A stretch of 64,000 bases of DNA from Escherichia coli. Its GTDB lineage: Bacteria > Pseudomonadota > Gammaproteobacteria > Enterobacterales > Enterobacteriaceae. Position 1 is the stretch's first letter. Each line of letters opens with the position of its first letter. Made by a program: the position numbers. Location: the NCBI RefSeq assembly GCF_041248615.1, contig NZ_CP158426.1. One strand, 5' to 3'. Positions 45,254 to 48,200 of this stretch are shown here, piece by piece.

Positions 45254-48200
45254 GTAAGCGTCGTATCTGGCGCTAGTACCCGATCACAACTCGATTTCAA
45301 TATCGCCTTTTGCCCGGCAACAACAGGGCAAAATTTCCCCCGGCTGAATAAAGGCTAACGGTTCGGCAATCCAGTCCACCTGGCCTGCAACAAGGCGCGT
45401 GCGACAGGAACCGCAGTAACCTTCGCGGCACTGGTACTCAACCGCCACATTGTGGGATTCCAGCGCCGCCAGAAGGGAAGGGTGTTCATCCTGGCACAGC
45501 AGTTGTGTGCCAGTGATGCGCAGGGTAACGCGAGCCATCAGAGCTGGAAGTTACTCAAATCGTCGGTGTCCACTTCCGAGTCAATCTGCCCGACCAGATA
45601 AGAACTGACTTCCACTTCCTGCGGAGCAACCTGCACGTTATCAGACACCAGCCAGGTATTGATCCACGGGATCGGGTTGGAGCGAGTCTGGAACGGCAGA
45701 TCCAAACCGACTGCCTGCATGCGGATATTGGTGATGTATTCAACGTACTGGCAGAGAATGTCTTTATTCAGACCAATCATCGAACCGTCACGGAACAGAT
45801 AATCCGCCCAGTCTTTCTCTTGCTGTGCCGCCTGGACAAACAGGTCATAGCATTCCTGCTTACATTCTTCGGCAATTTCCGCCATCTCCGGATCATCCGC
45901 GCCGCTGCGCAGCAGATTCAGCATATGCTGAGTACCGGTCAGGTGCAGGGCTTCGTCGCGGGCAATCAGGCGAATAATTTTGGCGTTACCTTCCATCAGC
46001 TCACGTTCTGCAAAGGCAAAGGAACAAGCAAAGCTGACGTAGAAGCGGATCGCTTCCAGCGCGTTAACGCTCATCAGGCAGAGATACAGTTTTTTCTTCA
46101 GCTCGCGCAGGCTAACGGTTACGGTTTTACCGTTAACGGTGTGGGTACCTTCGCCCAGCAGATGCCAGTAGCTGGTCATTTCGATCAGCTCATCGTAATA
46201 GCTGGAGATCCCTTCCGCACGTTTCTGGATCTGCTCGTTGGTGACGATATCATCAAACACAACGGACGGATCGTTAACGATATTACGAATGATATGGGTA
46301 TAAGAACGAGAGTGAATGGTTTCTGAGAACGCCCAGGTTTCGACCCAGGTTTCCAGTTCAGGGATCGAGATCAGCGGCAGCAGTGCCACGTTCGGGCTGC
46401 GACCCTGAATGGAGTCCAGCAACGTCTGATATTTCAGGTTGCTGATAAAGATGTGTTTTTCGTGTTCAGGCAGTGCCTGGTAATCGATACGGTCACGAGA
46501 AACGTCAACTTCTTCCGGACGCCAGAAGAAAGAGAGCTGCTTTTCGATCAGCTTTTCGAAGATGTCATATTTTTGCTGATCGTAGCGAGCCACGTTGACC
46601 GGCTGACCAAAGAACATCGGTTCTTTGAGCTGATCATTTTTCGTCTGTGAAAAGGTGGTATATGCCATGAATGTGTCCTGTTGGGAGTTTAATGCCGGAT
46701 AAGGCATTTTACGCCGCATCCTGTGCCTGATGCGACGCTGGCGCGTCTTATCAGGCCTACAAACCGAGCCGTATGCCGGATAAGGCGTTCACGCCGCATC
46801 CGGCATCTCAATATCAGATCTTACATGCGCCGCTTTCGCAGCCATCGTCCTGGATTGACGGTACCAGATCGTCCTGCGCGTCTTCAGCGCCGTCACGGGT
46901 GTTCTGATAATACAGCGTTTTGACCCCGAATTTGTAGGCGGTGAGCAGGTCTTTCAGCAGTTGCTGCATCGGCACTTTTCCTGACGGGAAGCGTGACGGA
47001 TCGTAGTTGGTGTTAGCAGAGATCGACTGATCGATAAATTTCTGCATGATACCCACCAGTTGCAGGTAGCCATCGTTACCCGGCATTTCCCACAGCAGCT
47101 CATAGGCGTCGTGCAGATGCTCGTAGTCCGGCACCACCTGGCGCAGAATACCGTCTTTCGACGCTTTGATGCTGACGTAACCACGCGGCGGTTCAATACC
47201 GTTAGTGGCGTTAGAGATCTGCGAAGAGGTCTCGGACGGCATCAGAGCAGAAAGCGTGGAGTTACGCAGGCCGTGCGTTTTGATTGACTCACGCAGTGCT
47301 TCCCAGTCGTAATGCAGCGGCTCATTAGCGATGGCATCCAGATCTTTCTTATAGGTATCGATCGGCAGGATCCCTTTCGCGTAAGTGGTTTCGTTAAACC
47401 ACGGGCACGCGCCTTGCTCTTTCGCCAGCTCATTAGAGGCTTTCAGCAGGTAATACTGAATAGCTTCGAAGGTTTTATGCGTCAGGTTGTTGGCGCTGCC
47501 GTCGGAGTAGCGTTTACCGTGCTTCGCCAGGTAGTAAGCGAAGTTGATCACACCAATACCCAGCGTACGACGACCCATCGCTCCACGTTTGGCGGCCGGG
47601 ATCGGGTAATCCTGATAGTCCAGCAGCGCGTCGAGTGCGCGTACCGCCAGAATCGCCAGCTCTTCCAGTTCATCCAGGCTATTAATTGCGCCCAGGTTGA
47701 AAGCAGACAGCGTACACAGCGCGATTTCACCGTTCTCGTCGTTGACATCATTCAGCGGTTTGGTCGGCAGGGCGATTTCCAGGCACAGGTTAGACTGGCG
47801 CACTGGCGCGATGGCCGGATCAAACGGGCTATGGGTATTGCAGTGGTCAACGTTCTGAATATAGATACGACCGGTAGACGCACGTTCCTGCATCATCAGC
47901 GAGAACAGCTCAACGGCTTTCACACGCTGCTTGCGGATGCTGTCGTCTTTCTCATATTTGGTGTACAGGCGTTCAAACTCTTCCTGATCGGCGAAGAACG
48001 CGTCGTACAGCCCCGGCACGTCGGACGGGCTGAACAGAGTGATATCTTCACCTTTCAGCAGACGGGTATACATCAGTTTGTTGATTTGTACCCCGTAGTC
48101 CATATGACGCACGCGGTTGCCTTCAACCCCACGGTTGTTTTTCAACACCAGCAGGCTTTCCACTTCCAGATGCCACATCGGGTAGAACAGCGTAGCCGCA

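Follow-up and report, generated by a model that had tools for sequence, protein, structure and literature searches.

REP sequences in a 64-kb segment of the Escherichia coli chromosome and a stop-proximal BIME in the nrdA-nrdB spacer

Repetitive extragenic palindromic (REP) sequences and the bacterial interspersed mosaic elements (BIMEs) that they compose have been known for about 40 years. We analyzed a 64,000-nucleotide stretch of Escherichia coli DNA (contig NZ_CP158426.1 of assembly GCF_041248615.1), referred to throughout as the window, and find REP sequences at four places: a three-unit BIME in the spacer between nrdA and nrdB, the genes of the two ribonucleotide reductase (RNR) subunits, single REPs between nuoL and nuoM and in the convergent gap between yfaL and ubiG, and a REP between inaA and yfaE that is interrupted by the insertion sequence IS1397. 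A preliminary description of this DNA had named the same four sites, and REP or BIME sequences were recovered at all of them, essentially where that description had put them. These sequences are ordinary members of the E. coli REP, or palindromic unit (PU), family. The explanation that best accounts for the whole, and that we regard as probable, adds that the nrdA-nrdB BIME is transcribed, lies close to the nrdA stop codon and tunes the ratio of nrdA to nrdB output.

All of these elements fall into families that are already well described (REP/PU, BIME-2 and IS1397), and the specific functional idea, an effect on the upstream gene, has already been published for K-12. What we add is modest and practical, namely a spacer that is polymorphic within the species, with one REP-free allele carrying the BoxC motif, and a stop-proximal hairpin that is kept across the Enterobacterales. 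Below we report, as direct observations, the identity of the elements, their anatomy, their distances from stop codons, the stability of their folds, the lack of a terminator signature in the nrdA-nrdB BIME, the polymorphism of its spacer among strains and the targeting of REPs by IS1397.

Identification of REP sequences in the window

The two arms of the REP consensus, GCCKGATGCGRCG and CGYCTTATCMGGCCTAC, were sought across the whole 64 kb with a gap of 0-14 nt between them and no more than 6 mismatches over 30 scored positions. Exactly five units were found, three in the nrdA-nrdB spacer, one at 1541-1576 and one at 53546-53579, compared with 0 matches in each of 30 first-order Markov shuffles. 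A second, looser generic arm model, which can also catch z1-type units, returned the identical five at up to 5 mismatches, with a mean of 0.3 in 40 shuffles. Allowing 6 or more mismatches, the generic scan produced 8 further matches (including 15941-15971 and 57818-57846) where about 2.3 are expected by chance. None of these was accepted as a REP; judging from K-12 gene order, the weak match at 57818-57846 probably lies inside coding sequence. All REP sites of the window are extragenic, lying between annotated genes.

Six units from the window, counting the inaA/yfaE REP rejoined across its insertion, were next aligned with five from K-12. The mean column identity of the 11 units is 80%, and the REP hairpin is 92.7% paired over 12 pairs, so that a formal alignment does match these sequences to the REP consensus. 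Compensatory changes occur at 5 of the 12 pairs, the fourth, for example, appearing as G-C, U-A and A-U, and the observed covariation was reached by 0 of 500 shuffles. Every slid register of the hairpin model fell to 25-41% pairing. Alignment columns 8-9 and 24-25 are unpaired in the tested model, and local folds place an internal mismatch at these positions. Of the GTAG/CTAC tetranucleotide at the foot, CTAC is present in unit 2 of the nrdA-nrdB BIME, in the nuoL-nuoM REP and in the rejoined inaA/yfaE REP, and is altered in 3 of the 6 units, to ATAC in unit 1, to TAAC in the yfaL/ubiG REP and to ATTA in unit 3.

Per E. coli genome, a query with the nrdA-nrdB spacer finds a median of at least 28-38 matching places, which is what a dispersed repeat should give. 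Scanned in full against Rfam at gathering thresholds, the window gave 0 matches; no REP family appeared among the results, and the outcome says nothing against REP identity. The K-12 RefSeq record lists no REP features; the RepRanger supplements hold no content for these genes.

Anatomy and likely role of the nrdA-nrdB BIME

The nrdA-nrdB spacer is 145 bp long (46669-46813) and contains three REP units in alternating orientation (-, +, -). The cluster, y / inverted z2 / degenerate y, occupies 46690-46807, in line with the two to three units first ascribed to this spacer. In the order in which they are met on the nrd strand, the features are as follows.

46814-46816, minus strand: nrdA stop codon, TGA
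46771-46806 (consensus match 46771-46804), minus strand: REP unit 1, y type, GCCGGATGCGGCGTGAACGCCTTATCCGGCATAC; 1 mismatch to GCCKGATGCGRCG...CGYCTTATCMGGCCTAC
46761-46770, minus strand: 10-nt linker, GGCTCGGTTT on the nrd strand; same as the first linker of the K-12 BIME
46725-46760, plus strand: REP unit 2, z2 type, GCCTGATGCGACGCTGGCGCGTCTTATCAGGCCTAC; 0 mismatches; inverted relative to units 1 and 3; equals K-12 units 2 and 4
46690-46724, minus strand: REP unit 3, degenerate y-like, ACAGGATGCGGCGTAAAATGCCTTATCCGGCATTA; 6 mismatches; equals K-12 unit 5
46666-46668, minus strand: nrdB start codon, with an AGGA Shine-Dalgarno sequence 7 nt upstream (K-12 annotation)

Read along the nrd strand, the TGA is followed by 7 nt, AUGCCGGAUGCGGCGUGAACGCCUUAUCCGGCAUAC (unit 1), the linker, GTAGGCCTGATAAGACGCGCCAGCGTCGCATCAGGC (unit 2, inverted) and unit 3, and then by 21 nt that include the AGGA ribosome-binding site before the ATG. 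Unit 3 lacks the outer GCC of its left arm as well as the CTAC foot; its complete form occurs in E. albertii. Folded as nrd-strand RNA, the spacer reaches -72.5 kcal/mol (z = -4.6), a stability attained by 0 of 200 shuffles, and span-limited folding yields local hairpins of -24.3, -21.9 and -11.8 kcal/mol for units 1, 2 and 3, respectively.

Because y, z2 and y-like units alternate with a short linker, the cluster is a BIME-2-type element, the family defined by tandem y and z2 REPs whose copy number varies between strains (Ton-Hoang et al., PMC3333891). It shares with BIME-2, in the Bachellier/Gilson nomenclature (PMC3333891), the alternation of y and z2, the short linker and the strain-variable tandem copies, but its third unit, a degenerate one, follows the z2 unit with no linker in between, which brings it nearer to the chimeric 'atypical BIME' arrangement.

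PMC12306157 describes, after Liang, Rudd and Deutscher (2015, Mol Cell), that a REP at most 15 nt from a stop codon makes ribosomes stall immediately ahead of termination and leads to endonucleolytic cleavage, and names nrdAB as the earlier reported REP-containing transcript of that study. The same paper (citing Newbury 1987; Khemici and Carpousis 2004) recounts the classical evidence that REP hairpins block exoribonucleases and stabilize upstream mRNA, a role that PMC3333891 also summarizes. Within the window, a REP falls inside 15 nt of the stop codon of nrdA, where the first stem begins at 46806, 7 nt past the stop, and the consensus GCC at 9 nt, and likewise of ubiG (4 nt) and, before the insertion of IS1397, of inaA (5 nt) and yfaE (12 nt). 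The REPs downstream of nuoL (38 nt) and yfaL (22 nt, or 17 nt for the extended stem) lie farther away. In the work of Liang and colleagues nrdAB was reportedly the model transcript, and the stalling is said to recruit transfer-messenger RNA and to lower the yield of NrdA.

The best-supported mechanism combines the anatomy described here with the K-12 literature and would extend, by analogy, to the three-unit allele of the window. The BIME would be transcribed within the nrdA-nrdB-yfaE message and fold into GC-rich hairpins. A ribosome terminating at the nrdA UGA would have to melt the first stem, since this begins only 7 nt away; stalling at the stem and cleavage of the mRNA, as reported in K-12, would lower the translation output of nrdA. 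The hairpins may at the same time act as barriers to 3'-to-5' exonucleases, so that the nrdA segment would be protected in cleavage products whose ends lie within the BIME. Stalling and decay barrier together would then tune the nrdA:nrdB output while transcription continues. Ribosome stalling, mRNA stabilization and their effect in this particular strain are here drawn from the literature or inferred from it. The suggestion, made in the preliminary description, that the BIME may contribute to differential expression of the two RNR subunits agrees with this published K-12 result.

The same description had offered terminator activity as a further role for the REPs, which is the least well supported of its proposals. 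A consensus scan of 46400-47100 detected no hairpin followed by a T-run on the nrd strand, and the reading of the nrdA-nrdB BIME as an intrinsic terminator was rejected on this ground; a T-rich tract follows only the yfaL-side reading of the REP at 53546-53579. The BIME might still end transcription in part after nrdA, through an intrinsic or Rho-dependent route, leaving less nrdB than nrdA message. Such attenuation by BIMEs has precedent (Espeli et al. 2001, as cited in PMC12306157 and PMC3333891). In addition, the first hairpin is followed by a T-run, in the manner of an intrinsic terminator or attenuator, in 7 of the roughly 68 enterobacterial spacers surveyed below (Pantoea stewartii, Shimwellia pseudoproteus, Siccibacter turicensis, Cedecea colo, Enterobacteriaceae bacterium LSJC7 and two Enterobacteriaceae metagenome-assembled genomes (MAGs)). 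However, CTACGG comes after the first hairpin of E. coli type in the local folds of related Escherichia spacers, and ATACGG after unit 1 of the window; neither is a T-run. Moreover, nrdB is essential, and in 46400-47100 a consensus scan turned up no sigma-70-like promoter, on either strand, that could drive it independently; its expression must therefore depend largely on read-through, and termination at the BIME would not be complete. Judged from its sequence, the nrdA-nrdB element is not an efficient terminator, and we regard partial termination as a quite improbable account of its role.

The composition of the element, y plus z2, raises a different alternative, in which the BIME acts at the level of DNA as a site of gyrase binding and cleavage or as a topological insulator separating highly transcribed genes, and its RNA hairpins are incidental. 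BIME-2 elements are reported targets of gyrase cleavage in vivo, and REPs are reported to bind gyrase, Pol I and IHF (references in PMC3333891 and PMC1525189). Nevertheless, E. coli alleles with a single REP unit or with BoxC (see below) lack a y-z2 pair, hence the locus does not conserve a role of this kind. Although it is compatible with tuning at the RNA level rather than exclusive of it, we consider a DNA-level role unlikely to explain the element.

Variation of the spacer within E. coli and across the Enterobacterales

The window is a piece of the E. coli chromosome. Among 5,426 complete E. coli genomes, 5,415 match a 701-nt query around the nrdA-nrdB spacer over at least 80% of its length, the match lying between genes annotated as nrdA and nrdB. 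Allele shares were estimated from evenly spaced steps down the BLAST ranking of the 5,426 complete genomes (n=59 and n=40 rows), representatives of each spacer length class were fetched, and the BoxC allele was counted directly. In the list, and below where needed, L001 is the K-12 sequence, L002 that of strain CFSAN018748, which is near-identical to the window, and L004 that of strain UTAK-22.

65 bp: 1 unit, a recombinant of unit 1 and the last unit; example L003; about 2% (1 of 59 rows)
88 bp: no REP; example L004 (158-245); 31%, counted directly (1,684 of 5,426)
145 bp: 3 units; example the window; 18-22%
189 bp: 4 units of other REP variants; example L005; about 5%
226, 233 and 241 bp: 5 units each; O55:H7, K-12 and C43(DE3), respectively; jointly 41-45%

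With at least seven alleles within the species, the nrdA-nrdB spacer ranks among the more polymorphic short intergenic stretches of E. coli. All alleles share its last approximately 20 nt.

The K-12 MG1655 BIME shares locus, orientation and flanks with that of the window. Their sequences are identical from the nrdA stop codon into the first REP arm, which gives the same 7-9 nt stop distance, and the z2 unit and the last degenerate unit are identical as well, the three units of the window forming a subset of the five of K-12. They differ in length, the 233-bp K-12 spacer holding one y-z2 pair (88 bp) more than the 145-bp spacer of the window, and in unit 1, which has a GTGAAC loop and CCGGCATAC foot in the window but a GTAAAC loop and CCGGCCTAC foot in K-12. 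The 88-bp allele contains CCCTCTCCCCTTGCGGGAGAGGGTTAGGGTGAGGGG, which the tables of Holder et al. (PMC4666352) place in type A of the BoxC/TMECO intrastrand-triplex motifs, and its stem starts about 30 nt past the nrdA stop. This BoxC/PIT/TMECO motif (PMC4666352) resembles the BIME in being a GC-rich palindromic intergenic repeat in the same gap. Yet it is unrelated in sequence to the REPs of the window, and BoxC is absent from the window.

We then compared nrdA-nrdB spacers across species, taking one genome per species and using the nrdA 3' end TGYGARAGYGGNGCNTGYAARATHTGA as the query; the sample is confined to species in which exactly this 3' end and a TGA stop occur. The 80 loci yielded 76 delimited spacers. 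Eight, from Advenella and unclassified Proteobacteria MAGs, are 28-30 nt long and unstructured. The remaining ~68 all come from Enterobacterales, measure 48-240 nt and without exception form one or more local hairpins at -8 kcal/mol or below; for ~59 the distance from the nrdA stop to the start of the first hairpin is at most 15 nt, irrespective of the repeat family that supplies it. Relative to shuffles, the spacer folds have a median z of -4.4, with z below -2 in 60 of 69.

The sequences that supply these hairpins differ among lineages. E. coli-type REPs are found in E. albertii (5 units), E. whittamii (3 units), Yokenella and Citrobacter amalonaticus, and GCCSGG-type palindromic units in Salmonella, most Citrobacter, Klebsiella and Raoultella. 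BoxC occurs in the spacer of 11 other Enterobacterales species (among them Pseudocitrobacter, Pluralibacter, Phytobacter and Buttiauxella), and Erwinia and Sodalis have lineage-specific hairpins.

Several of these observations weigh against a tuning role for the REPs of the nrdA-nrdB spacer. Some 31% of complete genomes have no REP there and carry BoxC instead, a one-unit allele also exists among E. coli genomes, and the hairpin survey covers nrdA-nrdB spacers alone, without a control set of other intra-operon spacers. Since REP content varies and BoxC and one-unit alleles exist, regulation specific to REPs is not required and must be dispensable or replaceable.

The REPs could be selfish or neutral repeats, non-autonomous sequences maintained and spread by a REP-associated transposase, which would build up in any intergenic gap able to tolerate them and have no selected role at nrdA-nrdB or at the other sites. 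The number of units differs between strains (1, 3, 4 or 5), an unrelated motif replaces the BIME in nearly a third of genomes, the inner stem of the nuoL-nuoM REP is weaker in the window than in K-12, and the yfaL/ubiG site has one unit here where K-12 has two; a nuclease/transposase activity specific to REPs has been described (PMC3333891). On the other hand, a strong stop-proximal hairpin is present in essentially all sampled Enterobacterales and is built from at least four unrelated sequence families, which selection explains more easily, and an effect of the K-12 nrdAB REP on its transcript is reported in PMC12306157. Owing to the REP-less third of genomes and the one-unit allele, neutral spread keeps substantial weight, although we think it rather less likely than not to be the whole answer.

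The cross-species pattern favors selection for structure at this position over a pure accumulation of hairpins by chance. One tentative extension, to which we give somewhat less than an even chance, is that the gap after the nrdA stop codon constitutes a conserved 'hairpin slot', in which what selection acts on would be the presence of a strong stem, no farther than about 15 nt from the stop, and not REP sequence. The natural allelic series (1, 3, 4 or 5 REPs, and BoxC) could be used to test the REP-stalling model of NrdA:NrdB balance and, being ready-made, whether stop-proximal hairpins set the ratio of the RNR subunits.

Two observations concern sequences that overlap or adjoin the BIME. An 11-codon open reading frame (ORF) at 46667-46702 on the plus strand, antisense to the start of nrdB, has its stop codon within REP unit 3 and corresponds to the annotated K-12 small protein YoaM (b4779). 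In strains with the BoxC allele the antisense sequence past the YoaM start codon differs, and by our reading the 11-codon frame is therefore not conserved in them. In strain CFSAN018748, the interval between nrdB and nrdA (L002 7646-8269) contains partial pseudo-copies, one annotated as a ribonucleotide reductase missing its N-terminus, which we read as a 3' fragment of nrdA, and a 5' fragment of nrdB. By annotated coordinates each junction has a 145-nt gap, which suggests a tandem duplication of about 770 bp across the BIME, either real or an assembly artefact.

Single REPs, the IS1397 insertion and neighboring genes

The two single REPs and the components of the split REP are located as follows.

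1541-1576, minus strand: nuoL-nuoM REP; 5 mismatches; reads GTAGG... on the nuo mRNA strand
53546-53579, plus strand: yfaL/ubiG single divergent REP, in the convergent gap; 5 mismatches
43800-43821, plus strand: left half of the inaA/yfaE REP, z2-like, GTAGGCCAGATAATACGCGTAA; ends in GTAA, one of the two 4-nt copies of the target-site duplication
43822-45253, plus strand: IS1397, IS3 family, 1432 bp, inverted ends TGAACTGCACCCCAAA / TTTGGGGTTCAGTTCA, in the REP loop
45254-45271, plus strand: right half of the inaA/yfaE REP, GTAAGCGTCGTATCTGGC; its first 4 nt are the second GTAA copy

The nuoL-nuoM REP is predicted to form a hairpin of -15.2 kcal/mol on the plus (mRNA) strand, and three substitutions weaken its inner stem relative to the orthologous K-12 REP. 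At its distance from the nuoL stop, this REP is more likely a decay barrier or neutral. The yfaL/ubiG REP folds into hairpins of -23.8 and -21.6 kcal/mol. A scan of 53300-53800 called no intrinsic terminator at this REP; by eye, the extended stem on the yfaL strand is followed by the T-rich TTTTATTTATT, and yfaL transcription could end at this REP. In K-12 the gap is occupied by a two-unit y+z2 BIME (L001 4290-4420, against 53480-53600 of the window). The 3' end of yfaL also differs, the protein having 1242 aa in the window and, by annotated coordinates, 1250 aa in K-12. The REPs adjoining the stop codons of ubiG, inaA and yfaE would be near enough for stop-proximal action or may serve as 3' stabilizers.

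The REP between inaA and yfaE had been described as split around an insertion sequence, and it is cut exactly in its loop by the 1432-bp IS1397. Removal of 43822-45253 and of one GTAA rejoins the halves into GCCAGATACGACGCTTACGCGTATTATCTGGCCTAC, a sequence that departs from the generic arms by 4 mismatches and is found unchanged in CFSAN018748, where the inaA-yfaE gap is uninterrupted (empty site ...ACGC GTAA GCGT...). The insert is annotated as 'IS3-like element IS1397 family transposase' in records that match it at 100% identity, and the Prokaryotic Genome Annotation Pipeline (PGAP) assigns a programmed frameshift to the transposase of identical or near-identical copies. These results identify the insert as IS1397 in a REP loop with a GTAA duplication.

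According to PMC1525189, which cites Clement et al. 1999 and Wilde et al. 2001, 2003, IS1397 targets REPs/palindromic units, and the insertion in the window matches the published ones in being a 1432-bp IS3-family element in the central REP loop with a 4-bp duplication. Four other 1432-bp copies, near lafA, yjdM (twice) and wzxC in other genomes, likewise all lie in REP loops, and three of the four are flanked by 4-bp duplications (GTCA, GCAA and GGCA). IS1397 thus sits in a REP loop at 5 of the 5 loci examined, which reproduces its established specificity for REP loops; given this targeting, the split is a consequence of the REP and not a coincidence. IS1397 occurs somewhere in about 1,700 genomes. 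Its presence at the inaA/yfaE REP is rare, the insertion being common to only 2 of the 5,426 complete genomes (NZ_OW967178.1 and NZ_LT599825.1).

The genes that flank these sites are arranged as follows.

Window start, plus strand: nuoL, nuoM and the rest of nuo (ORFs/K-12 annotation)
43144-43794, plus strand: inaA
45284-45538, minus strand: yfaE
45538-46668, minus strand: nrdB
46814-49099, minus strand: nrdA (ORF; annotated nrdA in identical records)
49795-53523, plus strand: yfaL
from 53584, minus strand: ubiG
54453-57080, plus strand: gyrA

Between glpQ and inaA, K-12 has the yfaH pseudogene alone. The corresponding interval of CFSAN018748 (L002 3090-5331) holds a gene for a LysR-family regulator and one for a major facilitator superfamily (MFS) transporter, and an ORF of the window at 41873-43063 (396 aa) agrees in position and size with this transporter gene.

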